Part shown: one piece after another, positions 6,196 to 47,660 of the stretch
Layout: each line of letters opens with the position of its first letter
Numbering within the stretch: the stretch's first letter is position 1
Assembly (NCBI GenBank): GCA_963806575.1
Contig: CAWDYX010000020.1
Location: forward strand, 14,816 to 78,815
Origin: an uncultured Chloroflexia bacterium
GTDB taxonomy: Bacteria; Chloroflexota; Anaerolineae; Anaerolineales; Villigracilaceae
Direction: 5' to 3'
DNA length: 64,000 bases
Notes under the pieces: generated by a model
What the model was told of the DNA's origin: nothing
Seen by the model: only the letters and a program-made list of their open reading frames with translations
The model's database searches: none
Translations under genes and position numbers: made by a program

Positions 6196-6290
6196 GAAGT
6201 CAACTCATCGAAGTTATATTTTACTCCATGGATGAAATAATTCCATTTTCACTATCATCCCTCACTATGTAGATATGCTATACTCTTATT

Positions 6291-7030
6291 ATGCAGTACA
6301 AATATGCTACGGAACGCGCCAATTATGCAGACCTGGCCAGCGGGCACGTTTTCTACAGCCTGCCGGGGCATCCGGCGCTCCCGGTGCGCCTGGCAAGTGA
6401 GATCTACCAGCGCTGTCTGGCACTGCGGGGGCAGGGAATCTCTCCATGTACAATCTACGATCCATGCTGCGGGGCTGCCTATCATCTCAGTGTGATCGCT
6501 TACCTGCACTGGGAGTCGATCTACCGGGTGATCTGCTCGGATATTGACGAAAAGGCCGTCAGACTGGCGGAACGAAACCTGGGTCTGCTGACGCCGGGTG
6601 GAATAAAGAGAAGGAGCCGGGAAATTTCGGCGATGGTGCACCTGTACGATAAAGATCCCACAAAGGAGCGCTGGAGAGCATCACCCGCATGCAGGAACAG
6701 GTCAACCGGCTGACGGCGGTACGCCCGATCCAGACGCACGTCTTCCGCGCCAATGCCCTTAAGGCTTCCAGCCTGCGGGCAGGTCTGCAGGGTGTTGCGA
6801 TTGACCTGGTTTTTTCCGACATCCCTTATGGCCAGCACTCCCAATGGAAGGAAAACCAGACACCCCATCCAGCCTGGGCAATGCTGGAAGCATTGTTCGA
6901 GTTCCTTTCTCCTAAGAGTATTGTGGCAATAGTATCCGATAAACTTCAGAAGGCCGCTCACGAAAAGTATGAACAGATTGAAAAATTTCAACTCGGCAAG
7001 CGCCAGGTGATCATCCTGAGGCCTGCCTGA
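6291..7030 (+). CDS. SAM-dependent methyltransferase (DPPY-type catalytic motif); frame broken once
   Basis: ORF 6291..6713 has motif I (IYDPCCGAAY). ORF 6689..7030 has motif IV-like DLVFSDIPYG. The second frame is open from 6653, so the frames can be joined within 6653-6713. Confidence 0.55.
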
Positions 7031-20840: not shown

Positions 20841-20894
20841 ACAGCATAAAATTCCTGTGCATATCTTCCTTTATCCGTTCTGCCTCCGAAACAT

Positions 20895-23150
20895 ATGAAA
20901 TCCTCTATCGGTCAATCCGTCCCTCGCATCGATGCCCGTGATAAAGTCACCGGCGCAGCCGCGTATTCCGGCGATCTCACCCGCCCGGATATGCTGCATA
21001 TGAAGACCCTTTTCGCAGGGCGAGCGCATGCGCGCGTGATCAGCATCGACACCGCCCAGGCGCTGAAATTGCCTGGCGTAGTCGCTGTATTCACCGCCGC
21101 AGATGTCCCGGTCAACGAGTTTGGGCTGCAGTGGAAGGATCAGCCGGTGCTATGTGGACCTTCCCCCATCCTTTCCGCTCTGCCATCGGGACGTGTGCCC
21201 GTAAGGGTGGAGGGTTCAGGAGTGAGGGCGGATATCGTCCGCTGTGAAGGCGACCGGGTGGCGATCATCATCGCCGAAACGGAAGCCATTGCCGACAAGG
21301 CCCGCAACCTTGTTCGCGTAGGATTACATGGACTTGCCGGCCGTTTATGATGCGGCCGAGGCCATGCAGCCGGACGCGCCACGCCTGCACCCGGAGAGGG
21401 GCGATTCCAATATCTGCGTCTGGGACAAGATCCGTAAAGGCGAGGTGGAATCCGCTTTCGCCCGGGCGGATGTGATTGTCGAGGGCGAGTACCATACGCC
21501 TTACCAGGAACACGCCTATCTCCAGCCGGAGGCCGGGCTGGCTTATCTGGACGAGGCAGGCCGCATCACCGTGGCGTGCGGTGGTCAATGGACGCACACC
21601 GACCAGGAGCAGATTTCCCACGCCCTTGGCCTGCCCAACGAACAGGTGCGTGTCATTTACCCGGCCATCGGCGGCGCATTCGGCGGCCGGGAAGATATGT
21701 CCGTCCAAATCCTGCTGGCTTTGGCGGTCATGAAACTCAAACGCCCGGTCAAGATCGTCTGGAGCCGTAAAGAATCCATCGTCGGTCATGGCAAACGCCA
21801 TCCGATGACGCTCAAGACCAGATGGGCTGCCACCAAAGCTGGCAAGCTCCTGGCGGCCGAGACCACTGTCATCGCAGATGCCGGCGCTTACATGTACACC
21901 AGCAACAAGGTGCTCGGCAACTGCACCATCACCGCCACCGGCCCTTATTTTATTCCCAACGTCAAAGAGGACGTGATCGGTGTTTATACCAACAATGTCC
22001 CGACGGCGGCCTTCCGCGGGTTCGGCGCGCCCCAGGCTCTCTGGATGGCCGAACTCCAGATGGACAAACTGGCCGAAAAACTGGGCCTGGACCCGGTGGC
22101 GTTCCGCCACAGCAACGCCCTGCGGGATGGCGATACGCTCAATGTAGGCACCCCGGCTCCGGGCCCCGTCAGCATCGTGAAGTGCATCGAAGCGGCGCGC
22201 GATAAGTTTGGCTGGTCTGCCCCGAACTCTAAAGATCGGGCGCAGGCGGGCAAACGTCCTGGTTGGAGCGAGTCGTTGGCGAGGGGTCGAGGTTTCGCCT
22301 GTGGCTTCAAGAATGTCGGCTTCTCATTTGGCTACCAGGAAAACTCCTGGGCGCGCGTCGAACTGCACGGCAAGACAGTGATCGAGCGGGCTGTCGTCTG
22401 GCATGCCGGTGCGGAGGTCGGGCAGGGCGCGCATACCGTCATGGCTCAGATGGCCGCCGGGGCGCTGAACATCCCATTCGAGAAGGTGGCCATGGTCACG
22501 TCCGACTCGGCCAGGATGGGCAACCCCGGCAGTGCATCCGCTTCGCGCATGACCTTCATGTCGGGCAATGCCATCAAGGGCGCAGCCGAAGCGGCACTGG
22601 CCAAATGGAAAGCCGAGGAACGCCCGGCGGTGGCCGAGTACACCTACCTGGCCCCCAAAACAACCCCCTTCGACAAGGAGACCGGCTATTCGGTACCCAA
22701 CCTTTCCTACGCGTACGCCGCCCAGGCCGTGGAGGTTGAAGTGGACCTGGAAACCGGGTTTATCAAGATCCTGCGCGTGGTCTCGGCCAACGATGTCGGA
22801 CAGGCCATCAACCCGGCACTCGTCCAGGGACAGATCGAAGGCGCGGTGGTGCAGGCTGAGGGCTACGTCCTGACCGAAAACTTCATCACCAGGAACGGCC
22901 ATATCCTGACCGACCAGCTCAGTACCTATCTCATCCCAACCATTCTGGACATTCCGGATGCAGTTGAATCAGTCATCCTGGAAGTGGCTGAACCGAACGG
23001 ACCCTTTGGGCGCGCGGCCTGGGGGAACTGCCCTTCCTGCCGCTGGCTCCCGCCATCGCCGCGGCGGTCCATGATGCCACCGGCGTCTGGTTCAACGAGT
23101 TTCCATTGACTCCGGAGCGGGTGCTGCGCGGGCTGGGTAAAATCCAATAA
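20895..23150 (+). CDS. xanthine dehydrogenase family molybdopterin-binding subunit; frame broken twice
   Basis: ORF 20895..21350 (IDARDKVTGAAAYSGD...) continues into ORF 21328..23109 (DLPAVYD...QEHAYLQPEAG...). A third frame then gives the expected C-terminus GARGLGELPFLPLAPAIAAAVHDATGVWFNEFPLTPERVLRGL up to TAA 23148-23150. The breaks lie at about 21320-21335 and 23000-23015 (a G-run). Confidence 0.85.
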
Positions 23151-42366: not shown

Positions 42367-42435
42367 TTATTTAATGTCATCACAAGTTCGCTGATATAAT
42401 ACCCCCCATCATTATCCTATTTCAGGAGTTCGTGT

Positions 42436-43857
42436 ATGGCCTTCAAAATCACCTTTGGTACCGATGGCTGGCGCGGTGTCATTGCCGAGGATTACACCTT
42501 CGATAACGTCCGTCGCTGCACTCAGGGTTTCGCCAATTACCTGGTCGAAAAAGGCCGGCAGGGTCAATGGGTGGTGGTTGGGCATGATAAACGTTTCGAT
42601 AGTGAGTTCTTTGCCGCGGCGGTAGCCGAAGTGCTGGTCGGCAACGGGCTGAAAGTGTACCTGACGAATGGAGCCACTCCCACCCCGGTGATTGCCTTCT
42701 CTGTGGTGGACAAAAAGGCCGGTGGAGCGGTCAACATCACCGCCTCGCATAACCCCGGCACCGACAACGGTTTCAAGGTCCGCAACGAGTTCGGTGGCGC
42801 CATCGACCCGGATGGGCTGCTGAAGATCGAGGCGCTCATTCCCGCTTCCGTGGCAGCGGTGAAACGGAAAGCTTATAAAAACGCCCAGGCGGCCGGAGAG
42901 ATAGTCATGTTTGACCCGGTTAAGCCCTACGAAGCCCATATCAACAAGCTGATCGACCTGCAGCCCATCCAGCAGGCCGGCCTGACCGTGCTGGTGGATT
43001 GCATGTGGGGCAATGGTGCAGGTTATTTCCCGCGCCTGCTGGCCGGCGGCAAGACCAAAGTAATCGAGATCCATAACCAGCGCAACCCGCTCTTTCCCGA
43101 AATGATCCGCCCCGAACCCATCCCTCCCAACATCAACGTTGGCCTGCAGGCCACCCTCGAAAACCATGCCGATGTGCTGCTCATCACCGATGGCGATGCC
43201 GACCGTGTGGGCGTGGGCGATGAGAACGGGCAGTTTGTCAACCAGCTGCGCGTCTACGGTTTGCTGGCATACTACCTGCTGGAGGTCCGCGGGCTGCGCG
43301 GTGCCATTGTCAAGACCCTCTCCACCACCGGCATGCTCAACAAACTTGGGCAGATCTACAACGTCCCGGTCTATGAAACCGGTGTGGGCTTCAAATATGT
43401 GGCTCCCAAGATGCTCGAGACGGATGCTCTGATCGGCGGCGAGGAAAGCGGCGGCTACGCTTTCCGCGGTAATGTGCCTGAACGTGATGGCATCCTGGCC
43501 GGGTTGTACATCCTCGACCTGATGGTACGGCTCGGCAAGCAGCCTTCGGAACTGCTCAAGTTGCTCTTCGCCAGGGTGGGAGGCGAGTACTTCTACGACC
43601 GCATCGACCGCCCCTTCAGCGGCAGCCACGCTGACCGTAAAAAGATGATCCTGGACGCAAACCCGCAGACCATCGGCGGCTTGAAAGTGGTCCAACTCGT
43701 CACGGTGGACGGCTTCCAGTTCAAACTCGAAGATGGCGGTTGGATGCTCATCCGCTTTTCTGGTACCGAACCCATCATGCGTGTCTATTGCGAGACGATG
43801 CACGCTGATAAAGTGCAGGCCATCCTGCAGGACGGTTTGAAGATCGCCGGCCTTTAA
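42436..43857 (+). CDS. alpha-D-phosphohexomutase family (phosphoglucomutase/phosphomannomutase)
   Basis: FGTDGWRG, the active-site Ser loop [14 protein letters not shown], the metal loop TDGDADR and GGEESGG. Confidence 0.9.
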
Positions 43858-43930
43858 TAGACTAGTGTCAAGGGTTCCGGTGTCAGGTGTCAACAAACAC
43901 TGGCACACTTGATACGGGACAACGGGATAC

Positions 43931-44788
43931 GTGACCCTTACAGACACCCATTGCCATTTGGACATGGACAAATTCGACTCCGACCGGGAAGCCGTGCTGG
44001 AACGTTCTGCCCAGGCCGGTGTGGTCCGCATTTTGATCCCGGGACTCAACCTCGCCTCCAGCCGGACCGTCCTCAAACTGGCCGGAAGCCATCCCATGCT
44101 CTTCGCGGCGGTTGGTGTCCATCCCACCGAGGCAGGCACTTGGACAAAAGAAACCAGGGATGAACTGAGAAACCTCTTCAAGCCCTCAGGCACGTCAGAA
44201 ACCTCAGGTTCGTCAAGAATCGTCGCCATCGGCGAAATCGGGCTGGATTATTACTGGGACTCCGCGCCTCACGATCTCCAGAAAACCGTCCTGCAGATGC
44301 AGCTGACTCTGGCGGCTGAAGCTGGTTTTCCGGTCATTCTGCATATGCGCGAAGCCAGGGATGAACCGAACGGGAATTGCGCCGGAGATCTTCTGCAAAT
44401 CCTGGAGGAATGGTGCTCAGGACTGCGCGCTGCGAAGAGTCCGCTGGCAGAGCGACCCGGTGTACTGCACTCCTTTTCCGGGACTCTGGAATCGGCGCAG
44501 GCCGCGCTGAGTCTCGGATTCTACCTCGGGGTGAGCGGCCCCGTCACCTTCGAGAACGCCGCCAGCCGACAGGAAATCGCCGCGGCGTTACCTCTGGATC
44601 GTGTTCTACTTGAAACGGATGCCCCCTTCCAGGCTCCCCAACCGCATCGCGGAAAACGCAACGAACCGGCCTATGTTCGCCTGATTGCTGATAAAATTGC
44701 CTTGCTCCATTCATGCAGCTTGGAGCGGGTCGCCGCAGTCACCAGCGGGAATGCCCGCAGGCTTTTTGGTTGGAAAGAGACAGCTTGA
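43931..44788 (+). CDS. tatD: TatD-family metal-dependent hydrolase
   Basis: LTDTHCHLD at the N-terminus, then GEIGLDY, HMRE, VLHSFSG and ETDAP. Confidence 0.85.
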   Translation: MTLTDTHCHLDMDKFDSDREAVLERSAQAGVVRILIPGLNLASSRTVLKLAGSHPMLFAAVGVHPTEAGTWTKETRDELRNLFKPSGTSETSGSSRIVAIGEIGLDYYWDSAPHDLQKTVLQMQLTLAAEAGFPVILHMREARDEPNGNCAGDLLQILEEWCSGLRAAKSPLAERPGVLHSFSGTLESAQAALSLGFYLGVSGPVTFENAASRQEIAAALPLDRVLLETDAPFQAPQPHRGKRNEPAYVRLIADKIALLHSCSLERVAAVTSGNARRLFGWKETA

Positions 44789-45750
44789 ACACAGCCCCTA
44801 TTTTTGCACCCGTTCAGGTCAACCTGCAGGAAGTCGAAACGCTCCTGCATTCCCAGGCCGAGGATGCCCATCCGGAATTGCGAACCGCGCTGGAGCATTT
44901 GCTCTCTTCCGGAGGGAAGCGCATCCGCCCGGCGGTCGGCCTGTTGACCGGTCAAATGCTTGGGGCGCCCCATGATAAACTCCTGACCCTGGCGGCCTCG
45001 GTGGAGATGCTGCACACCGCCACCCTTGTCCATGATGATTTGATTGATGGGGCGTTGCTTCGGCGGGGTATGCCGACCCTGAACGCTCATTGGTCACCCG
45101 CCGCCACCATCCTGACCGGGGACTATATGTTCGCGCGCGCTGCCAAACTGGCAGCCGAGTCGGATAATTTGTTATTAATGAAACTCTTCGCCGATACGCT
45201 GGCAACCATCGTCAATGGCGAACTGACCCAATTATTTGCCGCCCGCGGGGTGATCAGCCGCGCGAATTACAACAAACGCATTTACGCCAAAACCGCTTCG
45301 CTCTTCGAACTGACCACGCAGGCCGCTGCAATCATCAGTCCGGTTGATGAGGCCATGGTGGAAACCATGCGGCAATACGGTTACCATCTGGGGATGGCTT
45401 TCCAGATTGTGGATGACATCCTGGATTTCACCGGGGAGCAGGAAACAGTCGGCAAGCCGGTCGGCTCGGACCTGTTGCAGGGCCTGGTGACGCTCCCGGC
45501 CATTCTTTATGCGGAAGCTCATCCCTACGACCCGGATGTGCTGTGTCTCACGGGTGGTTGCTACACAGAGCACGAACGCATGGAACGGTTGGTACAATCC
45601 ATCCGGGAAAGCGATGCGGCCACGCAATCCATGAAAGAAGCGCAAGCTTTCATACAAAGGGCGCTGGAAATCCTGCGGACGGTGCCGGCAGGGCAGGAGC
45701 GGCAGGCTCTGGAAGACTTGACCGGTTACATCGTAAACCGGAGTATTTAA
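44785..45750 (+). CDS. trans-polyprenyl diphosphate synthase
   Basis: First DDxxD (LVHDDLID) and second DDxxD (QIVDDILD). I placed the start at TTG 44785, overlapping the tatD stop; the ORF track starts at 44713. Confidence 0.85.
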   Translation: MNTAPIFAPVQVNLQEVETLLHSQAEDAHPELRTALEHLLSSGGKRIRPAVGLLTGQMLGAPHDKLLTLAASVEMLHTATLVHDDLIDGALLRRGMPTLNAHWSPAATILTGDYMFARAAKLAAESDNLLLMKLFADTLATIVNGELTQLFAARGVISRANYNKRIYAKTASLFELTTQAAAIISPVDEAMVETMRQYGYHLGMAFQIVDDILDFTGEQETVGKPVGSDLLQGLVTLPAILYAEAHPYDPDVLCLTGGCYTEHERMERLVQSIRESDAATQSMKEAQAFIQRALEILRTVPAGQERQALEDLTGYIVNRSI

Positions 45751-45755
45751 CATCG

Positions 45756-46176
45756 ATGCCACCCTACTCCCTTCGCCGCTTGTTGTGGGGCGGCCCAGTC
45801 GCGACGGTTGCTGCAATTACTGGCAAATCTGTTGTATTTTGCAGTTACAAAGGCTCTCGGTGAGCGATATATTCTGCCGCTCGACGGGGACAGTTCCCGT
45901 TTCAGCCCAATGCCTGTCGCAATGCCTGTAATAGCCATCCTGGTCGCGGGTCTCCTGGCGACTGTTTTCTTTGGTCTGCTTATCCGCTTCAACCGCAAAC
46001 CGGCAACCGTTTTCCTGTCGGTAGCCGTGGCTGCCCTCATCCTCTCTTTTGGGGGACCCTTCAACCTGCCGGCTGCATCCTTGATAACAAAGCTCCTCTT
46101 GTGTGGAATGAATATCATTGCTGCAGTGATTATCACAGTTGGAATATTGCTCATGAGCCATAGAAACGCCACATGA
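45756..46176 (+). CDS. DUF6069-like small membrane protein; N-terminus in a different frame
   Basis: ATG 45756 gives MPPYSLRRLLWGGPVATVAA in one frame. ORF 45808..46176 continues as LLANLLYFAVTKALG... plus 3 TM helices. This implies an indel at about 45800-45815. Confidence 0.55.
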
Positions 46177-46189
46177 GTCATAAAGAACG

Positions 46190-46232
46190 AAAAAAAGAGT
46201 GAGTGGCGCAATGCGCCGCTCACTCTTTTTTT
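46190..46232. terminator. bidirectional intrinsic terminator
   Basis: A7, GAGTGAGTGGCGC, loop aat, GCGCCGCTCACTC, then T7. Confidence 0.8.
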
Positions 46233-46244
46233 GATATAAATTAC

Positions 46245-46627
46245 AAGAGGCGTCGATGGGATTTGCGTAGTCCCGCACAGCGGGAAACCCATGATGGCAG
46301 GGATCAGAAGCACAATCACCAAATCAAAACGAGCCTTTACAAACTCGTTTTATAAGAGGCGTCGATGGGATTTGCGCAGTCCCGCGCAGCGGGAAAGTCC
46401 CACGCAGTGGGAAAGTCCCGCACAGCGGGAAACCCACGTTGGCAGGGATCAGGAGCATAACCATCAAATCAAAACGAGCCCTTACAGACTCGTTTTTAAG
46501 AGGCGTCGATGGGATTTGCGCAGTCCCGCGCAGCGGGAAAGTCCCACGCAGTGGGAAACCCATGTTGGCAGGGATCAGAAGCACAATCACCAAATCAAAA
46601 CGAGCCTTTACAAACTCGTTTTTTAAG
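46245..46627 (-). repeat. three tandem pseudo-copies (109, 144 and 127 bp) of the tRNA-Cys 3' end plus its terminator hairpin
   Basis: Each unit (minus strand) ends in AAATCCCATCGACGCCTCTT, identical to the tRNA-Cys T-loop/acceptor 3' end plus trailer. It is followed by AAAAACGAG..CTCGTTTT. Units begin at 46245, 46354 and 46498, and the true tRNA follows at 46625. Confidence 0.9.
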
Positions 46628-46699
46628 AGGCGTCGATGGGATTTGAACCCATGATGAGGGTTTTGCAGACCCTTGCCTTAGCCACTTGGCCACGACGCC
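46628..46699 (-). tRNA. tRNA-Cys (GCA)
   Basis: Acceptor GGCGTCG/CGACGCC, anticodon stem AGGGT/ACCCT with loop CTGCAAA, and T-arm ATGGG-TTCAAAT-CCCAT. CCA is not encoded. Confidence 0.95.
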
Positions 46700-46778
46700 A
46701 TTCTTCATTTGCTGATTGAAAATTACGGATTGCTGATTGACCGTCTGCAACCATCAATCTGCAATCCGCAATCGTCAG

Positions 46779-46851
<73 letters not shown>

Positions 46852-46875
46852 GGAGGCCCCTACTTTCAGGCCGAG

Positions 46876-46948
46876 TGCCGAGAGCCAGGATCGGACTGGC
46901 GACACCGCAATTTTCAGTCGCGTGCTCTACCAACTGAGCTATCTCGGC
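46876..46948 (-). tRNA. tRNA-Phe (GAA)
   Basis: Acceptor GCCGAGA/TCTCGGC, D-arm GCTC-AGTTGGTA-GAGC, anticodon loop CTGAAAA and T-arm GCCAG-TCCGATC-CTGGC. Confidence 0.95.
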
Positions 46949-46978
46949 CTGGACACGAACTGTTTTTGAAGCGGGAGG

Positions 46979-47007
46979 ATTTTACACGCAGAGAGGGAGA
47001 TTGTCAA
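46979..47007 (-). promoter_or_regulatory. sigma-70-type promoter of the tRNA Phe-Gly-Cys operon
   Basis: On the minus strand: TTGACA (47007-47002), a 17-nt spacer and TAAAAT (46984-46979), about 25 nt upstream of tRNA-Phe. Confidence 0.7.
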
Positions 47008-47114
47008 GCAAAGGTCCAAAATGTTTACAGGGATTTTACATCCGGTTCATCTGCCGGTTACTTGAAGAATCTAAAATGCAGGTTACAAATCGAAATCAAA
47101 AAGGAGATGACACG

Positions 47115-47660
47115 ATGTTCAAAATGAAGTCTTTGATCAAGAAGATCGCCCTGGCTGCCCTGGTACTGGTAATCGGTTTGACTCCCTACCCGATATCCGG
47201 CGCATCGGCTGCCGGTATGAATGACCAGGCCAATCCCCAGCCGGATAACTCCCGGCTGGAAAACCTGTGGGCAAGCGAGCAGTCCCGTTATAAGCTCCAA
47301 GGTGACCGGATTTCAAATGCCGGCGATTTTATCGCCTGGGTGCAGACTCTGATCAATCGGACCAATTCCAAAGGCTGGGATACGTCCTCCGTCCAAGCCG
47401 CCCTCAATGCTCTCAGCGCCGTCATCCCGGCCGTCCAGGCTGCCCATGCTCCCGGATCCGCCATCCTCGCCAGTCACACCGGTTTCAATGCCAATGGCAA
47501 GGTCACCGACCGCATCACCGCCATTGCCACGGCCAAGTCCCTCGCCCGGGTTCTCAAGAACACCCGCACTGCGATGAACGGCACCGGCATGGCTTTACTC
47601 GCTGCGATCAGGGTCTTCCGGGATGCCCATCCTCGCTCAACCACCATACCTGTCCGCTAG
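47115..47660 (+). CDS. hypothetical secreted protein
   Basis: AAGGAG lies upstream of ATG 47115. Signal peptide MFKMKSLIKKIALAALVLVIGLTPYPISGASAAG. The mature part is helical and Ala-rich. Confidence 0.6.
   Translation: MFKMKSLIKKIALAALVLVIGLTPYPISGASAAGMNDQANPQPDNSRLENLWASEQSRYKLQGDRISNAGDFIAWVQTLINRTNSKGWDTSSVQAALNALSAVIPAVQAAHAPGSAILASHTGFNANGKVTDRITAIATAKSLARVLKNTRTAMNGTGMALLAAIRVFRDAHPRSTTIPVR

Follow-up and report, generated by a model that had tools for sequence, protein, structure and literature searches.

What leaves the 3' end of a tRNA gene repeated several times directly behind the gene itself? This question is raised by the window analysed here, a 64,000-nucleotide (64 kb) stretch of contig CAWDYX010000020.1 from an uncultured Chloroflexia bacterium, in which the functional tRNA-Cys gene of a Phe-Gly-Cys tRNA operon is followed by three tandem units that each end as the tRNA does. 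Here, we show using repeat and covariance-model searches, RNA folding and comparison with related loci that this array resembles the tRNA-linked repeats (TLRs) of E. coli, that it carries a conserved hairpin in the T loop, and that it is common to a clade of Anaerolineales, with variable copy number. Probably, though by no means certainly, the units are pseudogene copies of tRNA-Cys that undergo birth and death as a tandem array, and such an array would require no function beyond that of stacked terminators.

There are exactly four copies of the 20-mer AAATCCCATCGACGCCTCTT in the 64 kb, all on the minus strand, with none expected (100 shuffles): one at the 3' end of tRNA-Cys, where it spans T-loop A57 to U73 and three trailer bases, and one at the end of each of the three units, termed A, B and C (Table 1). 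The spacings between the copies are 127, 144 and 109 bp, equal to the unit lengths, and Tandem Repeats Finder (TRF) reports a period of ~126 with 89% matches. A preliminary description of this DNA, made from the letters alone, had placed four copies of the tRNA-Cys 3' end here with these unit lengths, which the exact matches confirm. From C56 to U73 of tRNA-Cys (18 nt), and through the CTT that follows, there is no difference among the three units. The array begins 2-4 nt past tRNA-Cys, on the same strand and ahead of the final terminator of the operon.

Each unit consists, from 5' to 3', of a terminator-like hairpin, a spacer of ~20 nt, a tRNA remnant, an insert and CAAATCCCATCGACGCC-TCTT. 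The remnant, GATCCCTGCCA(A/T)C(A/G)TGGGTT, corresponds to the anticodon-stem 3' strand, the variable region, the T-stem 5' strand and T-loop bases 1-2 of tRNA-Cys, and GATCCCTGCCAACATGGGTT in unit A is what is left of the variable region and the T-stem 5' strand. Each unit had been thought to contain a T arm, a view that overlooked the insert: the arm is split in every unit by 20 nt between the T-loop TT and CAAAT. This insert is an 18-nt hairpin repeat, TCCCRCTGYGYGGGACTN (TCCCRC-TGY-GYGGGA-CTN), present twice in unit A, three times in B and once in C; its six matches compare with 0.1 expected, and within the window they are confined to the array. Unit length equals 109 plus 18 for every extra hairpin, less 1 nt in the A run of unit B, so that a hairpin copy number of 1-3 is alone sufficient to explain the different unit lengths.

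Neither ARAGORN nor the Rfam tRNA model calls any unit as a tRNA, both reporting only the three real genes. The units in the window therefore lack a usable 5' half, in agreement with the preliminary description. With a T-loop insert of 20-56 nt and no complementary acceptor 5' strand, the units do not have the make-up of a functional tRNA, and Rfam at E <= 10 over positions 45500-47500 returns the three tRNAs and chance matches only.

The hairpin between the repeats, AAAACGAGUYUG-UAA-RGGCUCGUUUU, folds at -11.9 kcal/mol (z -3.6) into a stem of 11 bp with a GUAA loop and lies 3' of tRNA-Cys and of units A and B, followed by UUUUGAUUU and, on the other strand, by TTTTTT; the A run before it and the T run after it make it terminator-like in both directions. 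One and the same terminator had been assigned to all repeats; the hairpin does recur at these three positions but not after unit C, which is followed by a different and far stronger terminator at 46190-46232. Terminators were judged by folding energy; a simple scanner reported none in the region, missing even the strong final one. This final terminator is predicted to close the tRNA operon and the array as well as the convergent gene. An insulator, as proposed earlier, is plausible given that the hairpin of each unit is flanked by an A run on its 5' side and a T run on its 3' side.

Table 1. Features of the tRNA-Cys locus, listed along the minus strand from the operon promoter to the convergent gene (positions are those of the window).
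Feature	Position	Strand	Evidence or remark
Promoter-like site TTGACA-17-TAAAAT, 5' of tRNA-Phe	46979-47007	-	11/12 matches
tRNA-Phe(GAA)	46875-46948	-	ARAGORN, Rfam
tRNA-Gly(GCC)	46778-46850	-	ARAGORN, Rfam
GATTG-rich inverted-repeat spacer, Gly-Cys	46714-46773	-	TRF periods 7 and 14
tRNA-Cys(GCA), functional	46627-46699	-	ARAGORN, Rfam 67.3 bits; repeat copy 0 (final 18 nt and 2 trailer nt) at 46625-46644
Copies of AAATCCCATCGACGCCTCTT	46644-46625, 46517-46498, 46373-46354, 46264-46245	-	exact match
Unit A, 127 bp	46498-46624	-	20-mer, hairpin repeat, folding
Unit A, terminator hairpin	46597-46624	-	
Unit A, remnant GATCCCTGCCAACATGGGTT	46557-46576	-	
Unit A, two 18-nt hairpins	46521-46556	-	
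Unit A, 3' block	46498-46517	-	
Unit B, 144 bp	46354-46497	-	20-mer, hairpin repeat, folding
Unit B, terminator hairpin	46471-46497	-	
Unit B, remnant	46431-46450	-	
Unit B, three 18-nt hairpins	46377-46430	-	
Unit B, 3' block	46354-46373	-	
Unit C, 109 bp	46245-46353	-	20-mer, hairpin repeat, folding
Unit C, terminator hairpin	46326-46351	-	
Unit C, remnant	46286-46305	-	
Unit C, one 18-nt hairpin	46268-46285	-	
Unit C, 3' block	46245-46264	-	
Strong bidirectional terminator (A7, 14-bp interrupted stem, T7)	46190-46232	.	-28.4 kcal/mol, z -7.75
DUF6069 small membrane protein gene, convergent	45808-46176	+	downstream neighbour in all related loci

Is the array peculiar to this genome? Relatives were gathered by scanning metagenome contigs with the unit junction CGCAAATCCCATCGACGCC and by a scan of GTDB species representatives, the pattern of which matches real tRNA-Cys as well. 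Both scans combined gave ~30 true loci, and those that carry a name are all Chloroflexota metagenome-assembled genomes (MAGs; Anaerolineales or 'uncultured Chloroflexia'). Searching related genomes for the unit, as had been proposed, thus shows the orthologous locus to recur in ~30 contigs with 0-5 units, flanked by pgm, tatD, polyprenyl synthase and DUF6069 genes on one side and by the promoter and the genes for a small secreted protein (orf47k), RidA and a response regulator on the other; the polyprenyl synthases of the relatives are 77-94% identical to the window copy. A contig search with RidA gave 1-kb contigs that stop short of the array, and hence no strain-level copy of the window's own array. 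Among 17 GTDB species representatives that share the tRNA-Cys 3' end, six have no unit (L045, L061, L068, L069, L073 and L084), and 1-5 units are present in L036, L040, L043, L044, L048, L056, L057, L067/L072, L075, L078 and L097. The family of tRNA-like 3' fragments envisaged in the preliminary description therefore exists across a clade of Anaerolineales. A covariance model, R1, built from 42 distinct unit cores and searched against the window and 32 related loci (273 kb), finds copies at the tRNA-Cys locus only, with a single extra match elsewhere, at 20863-20942 of the window (E 0.39). We rejected a dispersed repeat such as a repetitive extragenic palindrome or bacterial interspersed mosaic element (REP/BIME) or a miniature inverted-repeat transposable element (MITE), as R1 copies occur at one locus only in these 273 kb of window and relatives. 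A literature search found no report of such repeats outside E. coli.

The relatives also indicate where the units come from. In L022, L031, L033, L044, L014 and L097, as well as in the oldest L057 unit, a Gly-Cys spacer copy is followed by a near full-length copy of tRNA-Cys, the insert and an intact 3' block. These near full-length copies keep the D arm and the anticodon arm (GCA) and are 70-83% identical to tRNA-Cys positions 1-53, with the acceptor 5' strand destroyed. As they come with native flanks, the units must be gene duplicates and not foreign DNA. In the sub-clade of the window, the inter-unit DNA is the tRNA's own terminator: the array-less L073 has the same hairpin directly 3' of tRNA-Cys. 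Minimal units measure 70 bp in L032 and 58 bp in L057, where no terminator lies between the tRNA and the units.

Copy number changes over short distances. With flanks 99-100% identical, L031 exceeds L033 by two 156-bp units, L016 exceeds L019 by at least two units at a flank identity of 97.4%, and L073, L021 and L043 (~94% identical) carry 0, 1 and 2 units, respectively; the window has three units versus one in its closest representative, L075. Units within one genome are alike (89% in the window, near-identical in L078 and L057), and between genomes their non-core parts are unalignable. Identity to the tRNA, taken over all units, is 95% in the 3' block and 63% in the 5' part, where random sequence gives ~52% with the same aligner. 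Where unit quality differs, it is the most distal unit that is most decayed, with the lowest covariance-model score and a mutated 3' block (L013, L014, L016, L017, L019, L040 and L057). Proximal units that are intact in other respects have mismatches in the T-stem 5' strand (atcgg, atgtg, atagg), and the single units of L036 and L097 are decayed. Polymorphism, distal decay and the identity of the 3' block are together what unequal exchange or slippage predicts when the 3' end and trailer of the tRNA are held constant by selection, and the patterns argue against equal selection on every unit. The suggestion that the array was generated by slippage gains support from the polymorphism in unit number at 97-100% flank identity and from slippage of the 18-nt hairpin.

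Repeats of this kind, which the preliminary description did not name, have been described in E. coli. According to PMC8144298, TLRs number 22 sequences at ten loci, with 1-5 per locus, and consist of the RtT RNA of the tyrT operon (Rfam RF00391) and of rrA, rrB and rrF behind 5S rRNA (Egan & Landy 1978; Rudd 1999; both via PMC8144298). The same source states no known function except for rrA, rrB and rrF, which are read-through small RNAs (sRNAs) that bind Hfq and CsrA, and gives the repeated 3' end as a proposed processing signal (PMC8144298). Similar to the E. coli TLRs, the Anaerolineales units follow a tRNA gene directly and share its operon, they occur in tandem in varying number (1-5 per locus, differing between strains, in E. 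coli; three in the window and 0-5 in the relatives), and they end in a stretch identical to the 3' end of the upstream gene (~18-19 nt in E. coli, 18 nt here). Of 5426 complete E. coli genomes, 4726 contain RtT, in 1-9 places each, a presence/absence and copy-number behaviour comparable to that of the Anaerolineales units, and at E. coli rrnB a TLR is situated between two terminators, as these units are. By analogy, the array can be regarded as a 'tRNA-linked repeat' in the E. coli sense, located in the 3' trailer of the Phe-Gly-Cys operon.

The likeness seems to extend to the inside of the unit. At the K-12 tyrT-tyrV-rttR locus (NC_000913.3 1286650-1287700; L102), the units are 178 bp long and have three parts. 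The first, ...CTTCGACCAAGGTTCGA, equals the variable loop, the T-stem 5' strand and the first T-loop bases of tRNA-Tyr, of which AAGGTTCGA represents the T-stem 5' strand and the first T-loop bases; next come ~67 nt with two GCA-triloop hairpins (cgttgcc-gca-ggcaacg and agcgc-gca-gcgct), and then AATCCTTCCCCCACCACCA. On our reading of the sequence, the RtT unit would be a tRNA-Tyr 3' part with a hairpin-bearing insert in the T loop, laid out as in Anaerolineales, and we have encountered no prior description of the apparent split T loop of RtT in those terms. In the Rfam consensus of RtT, a helix onto the T-stem 3' strand closes the unit and the acceptor 3' strand is single-stranded. RF00391 has no match in 45500-47500 at E <= 10, whereas the E. 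coli K-12 tyrT control gives four matches of 133-137 bits; the Anaerolineales units are therefore an analogue of RtT, not a homologue. Further differences lie in the insert (~67 nt in RtT versus 20 nt with one small hairpin), in the phylum and the tRNA (Proteobacteria versus Chloroflexota, with a tRNA-Cys that has no encoded CCA) and in distribution, as E. coli TLRs are dispersed over ten loci with locus-specific 3' ends and the comparison for Anaerolineales rests on one locus.

Two other known systems invite comparison. Minisatellite-like tandem repeats, subject to concerted evolution through unequal crossing-over, show the same similarity within a genome, variable copy number and a most diverged repeat at the edge; unlike them, the present array has one end anchored in an essential gene and retains a structured insert throughout the clade. 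In E. coli, 3'ETS-leuZ is a trailer-derived sRNA of the glyW-cysT-leuZ operon with a known base-pairing function (cited in PMC8144298). It is likewise an RNA segment in the 3' external transcribed spacer of an operon that holds Gly and Cys tRNAs and is released by tRNA processing, but it is single copy and has no duplicated tRNA 3' end.

How could the array have formed? We infer that in an ancestor of the clade tRNA-Cys and its flank were duplicated in tandem, and that the downstream copy was then interrupted in its T loop, at position 55/56, by a 20-nt hairpin insert and ceased being a tRNA. Later, the array would have grown, shrunk and sometimes vanished by unequal homologous recombination or replication slippage, with the real tRNA 3' end and its terminator acting as the first repeat. 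The tRNA 3' end would be under selection, and exchange with it would preserve its identity with the 3' blocks of nearby units; the 5' parts of units would decay or be deleted, and the most distal units would decay throughout. Slippage of the 18-nt hairpin itself would give the 1-3 copies per unit. At most, the array would then amount to stacked bidirectional terminators that separate the tRNA operon from the convergent DUF6069 gene.

The T-loop insert does not fit easily into an array of mere pseudogenes, and several of its properties weigh against this account. It has no template in the real tRNA and yet persists, with a stem that is ~85% paired. Among the 42 sequences, three of the six hairpin pairs have changed on both sides (GC 26/AU 11; CG 26/GC 3/UA 1; CG 38/UA 1), and doubly changed cells number 16, compared with 5.4 +/- 1.7 in column shuffles (0/500) and 0-3 in slid controls. 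The arms occur as CCCGC/GCGGG, CCCAC/GTGGG, CCCAT/ATGGG (L056), CCGGC/GCCGG (L057) and CCTGC/GCAGG (L040), and intermediates with a single mismatch are seen in sister units. Insert length is 19-21 nt (or +18/+36) in every lineage, always between the T-loop TT and CAAAT. The linker ACTRCG 3' of the hairpin is >90% conserved and the 3-nt loop freely variable, and between lineages the insert has a median conservation of 75% versus 57% for the 20 nt 5' of the T stem. Unit-bearing L056 groups with array-less L068 and L084, outside the other unit-bearing lineages, in a single-gene neighbour-joining tree that is indicative only; the presence of a unit in this deep-branching lineage suggests an old origin, several losses and long survival of the hairpin. 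Moreover, the units of L032 and L057, with no terminator after the tRNA, must be co-transcribed with it. Taken together, the pairing of the hairpin, its fixed length, the linker and its long survival suggest constraint. Templated correction of quasi-palindromes during replication is a known mutational process and can mimic compensatory evolution. The apparent compensatory changes may alternatively be the product of such correction.

Constraint of this kind would be expected if the units were functional modules of a trailer RNA, which we hold as a tentative possibility. A module of the T-stem 5' strand, the T-loop hairpin, the ACTRCG linker and the terminal 18 nt of tRNA-Cys would be co-transcribed with tRNA-Cys or transcribed by read-through; its tRNA-identical end would recruit the 3'-end processing machinery and set the 3' end of the RNA, as proposed for E. 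coli RrB. The role of the hairpin would lie in stabilising the RNA or in serving as a recognition element, and what results would be either a small trailer RNA or a cis element for processing or insulating the operon. Compensatory hairpin changes in at least four lineages, the constant insert length and conserved linker, and the uneven conservation within one unit all speak for such a module, as do its persistence across a clade with polyprenyl synthases 77-94% identical, the terminator-free units of L032 and L057, and the matching layout of E. coli RtT, in which a helix closes the unit, hairpins lie inside it and the tRNA 3' tail is single-stranded. However, the array is missing in six of the 17 species representatives and the single units of two others are decayed, distal units have decayed in all their parts including the 3' block, and several units that are intact in other respects have a broken outer T stem. 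The RNAalifold consensus contains only a weak 4-pair hairpin (-1.7 kcal/mol), and the mismatches in the hairpin, with A.C as common as G.U, do not point to the sense RNA strand. Every unit in the window sits behind a terminator-like hairpin, and with no 5' acceptor strand RNase P and RNase Z would presumably see no tRNA-like substrate. It seems unlikely to us that Chloroflexota and Enterobacteria arrived independently at a functional RNA design made of a T-loop hairpin and a true tRNA 3' end. An att-site graveyard, as put forward in the preliminary description, is improbable. It would make the tRNA 3' ends attR-type scars of the serial integration and loss of elements that target the T loop of tRNA-Cys; in a weaker form, only the 20-nt insert would be the scar of one event, in a duplicated copy, and recombination would have amplified the array later. 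The T loop is the crossover point for one class of tyrosine integrases that target tRNA genes, and the classification of such elements is reportedly due to Williams in 2002. The array resembles the attL/attR of such elements in that the duplicated block runs from within the T loop through the 3' end and the intact gene comes first with partial copies downstream. In L075 and L032, which belong to different sub-clades, tRNA-Gly is interrupted at T-loop 55/56 by islets, so T-loop-directed insertion occurs in the clade, and addition of units at the tRNA would also explain why the oldest units are the most distal. Nevertheless, the integrase look-up that had been suggested yielded no integrase or mobile-element gene in or beside the array at any of the ~30 syntenic loci. 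Unlike attL/attR, the array lacks cargo and has native inter-repeat DNA (the terminator, or the Gly-Cys spacer with a pseudo-tRNA). The insert splits the would-be core site instead of flanking it, no insert is bounded by core direct repeats, and units of 58-156 bp would be too small for integrating circles. Between near-identical genomes, whole units are gained or lost, as homologous exchange predicts. In IMG/VR, scanned for an attP with plasmids and complete host genomes outside the scan, CAAATCCCATCGACGCC has six matches and GGGACTNNNCAAATCCCAT (the hairpin/T-loop junction) one, all of them chance matches inside coding sequence with no tRNA-like context.

Could the assembly itself have produced the unit number, by collapsing or inflating a repeat? 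Tandem repeats of 110-145 bp are hard for short-read assemblers, and contigs L014, L016 and L030 break inside such arrays. We nonetheless regard this as highly improbable: the three units differ mutually by several substitutions and in hairpin number, and are therefore not identical copies that an assembler could freely collapse or inflate. The architecture also recurs in many independent assemblies, including contigs of 0.1-1.3 Mb (L043, L057, L075 and L078), and five separate contigs (L015, L025, L026, L027 and L048) yield identical two-unit arrays. Other structural candidates were considered. A conserved long-range helix of UGGUGAUUGUGC, in the spacer, with GCGCAAAUCCCA was predicted by RNAfold in units A and C, and by eye the partners in other lineages are in different registers or absent. 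A split, permuted or intron-bearing tRNA, in which the hairpin would represent a T-loop intron or the paired ends of a permuted precursor, was rejected: it does not agree with acceptor 5' strands that are missing or non-complementary in every lineage, and bacteria are not known to have the splicing endonuclease. We also rejected a hammerhead, as the hammerhead-like CUGAUG of some units is only diverged variable loop and T stem, with no GAAA and no stem III.

In two relatives, the neighbouring tRNA-Gly is affected. Islets of 3.4-3.7 kb, at 2463-5893 in L075 and 2568-6360 in L032, divide the operon between tRNA-Phe and tRNA-Gly, which in the window are adjacent at 46850-46875. The left junction of the islet is a partial tRNA-Gly, positions 1-55, that ends at the T-loop GGGTT with a C-rich hairpin directly next to it. 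Common to both islets is the left end, CCTAAAACAAACC...ACCCCCAT..GGGGTGTT; the right ends are unrelated and abut the complete tRNA-Gly. The cargo is of toxin-antitoxin type and differs between the two, comprising MntA-like/HepT (PF01934) and a HicB-like protein in L075, and a TPR protein and a SocA-like pair in L032, and neither islet contains an integrase open reading frame (ORF). It appears that the islet supplies the 5' part of the tRNA-Gly gene, the reverse of the usual polarity. The location of the islets makes T-loop 55/56 a recurrent junction in the clade, at the same position as the Cys insert. As an idea and not a result, an islet-like event in a duplicated copy could have left the 20-nt insert of the Cys pseudogenes as its scar, and the T-loop junction of these integrase-less islets possibly reflects an active, undescribed mechanism of insertion.

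E. coli TLRs have been known since 1978, most of them without known origin or function, and the clade described here provides a second, unrelated family with the TLR layout in a distant phylum. It offers comparative material beyond E. coli, in species with 0-5 units, near full-length ancestral forms and compensatory changes, and opens two questions to testing: does the retained tRNA 3' end serve as a processing signal, and why is the T loop the place of the break? Should the layout be a functional design that evolved twice, TLRs would not be an oddity of E. coli but a widespread route to trailer sRNAs or to cis modules for processing or termination, by which a duplicated tRNA is disabled by a T-loop insert and its 3' end is kept for the tRNA-processing enzymes. 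In practice, such arrays yield partial tRNA matches, spurious ORFs and breaks in metagenome contigs, and they can be mistaken for the att sites of genomic islands.

The promoter-like site 5' of tRNA-Phe presumably drives the Phe-Gly-Cys operon, in which CCA is encoded in none of the three tRNAs. The Gly-Cys spacer is conserved throughout the relatives, a copy of it serves as inter-unit DNA in 'spacer-type' arrays, and it may be a processing hairpin. Downstream of the arrays in L032, L036, L015/L048, L057, L061 and L097, a bidirectional terminator that also serves the convergent gene, AAAAAGTCCCC..loop..GGGGACTTT (AGTCCCC..GGGGACTTT), resembles the 3' arm and tail of the T-loop hairpin, GCGGGACTTT, which may be a coincidence or due to a shared origin of GCGGGACTTT and GGGGACTTT; no model accounts for the GGGTT in front of the hairpin. 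L075 has ~180 bp of extra DNA at 6240-6420, between its last unit and the DUF6069 gene; the long G/C-rich palindrome that this DNA contains, ccccacccctactccttccccatggggcaagcccatggggaaggggtaggggtggggg, does not occur in the window.

The flanking genes in the window encode DUF6069, polyprenyl synthase, TatD and phosphoglucomutase (PGM) on one side and a small secreted protein, RidA and a response regulator on the other. A divergent gene at 47115-47660 (+) encodes a 181-aa protein with a signal-peptide-like N terminus and no Pfam match, and adjoins the operon in most relatives (48-77% identity). The 605-aa ORF at 42412-44229 (-), which runs antisense to the genes for phosphoglucomutase and TatD, is not a gene but a mechanical ORF in G+C-rich DNA; the proteins on the opposite plus strand have clear Pfam matches. 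We also rejected as a gene the 111-aa basic repeat ORF at 46291-46626 (+): unit lengths of 127, 109, 152, 110 and 58 bp are not multiples of three, and the frame is lost between units and relatives. Together with a second basic ORF, at 46203-46355 (+), it runs antisense through the array (KRRRWDLRSPAQRE...), and both are almost certainly spurious. They recall the 'protamine-like' tpr annotation inside the RtT repeats of E. coli.

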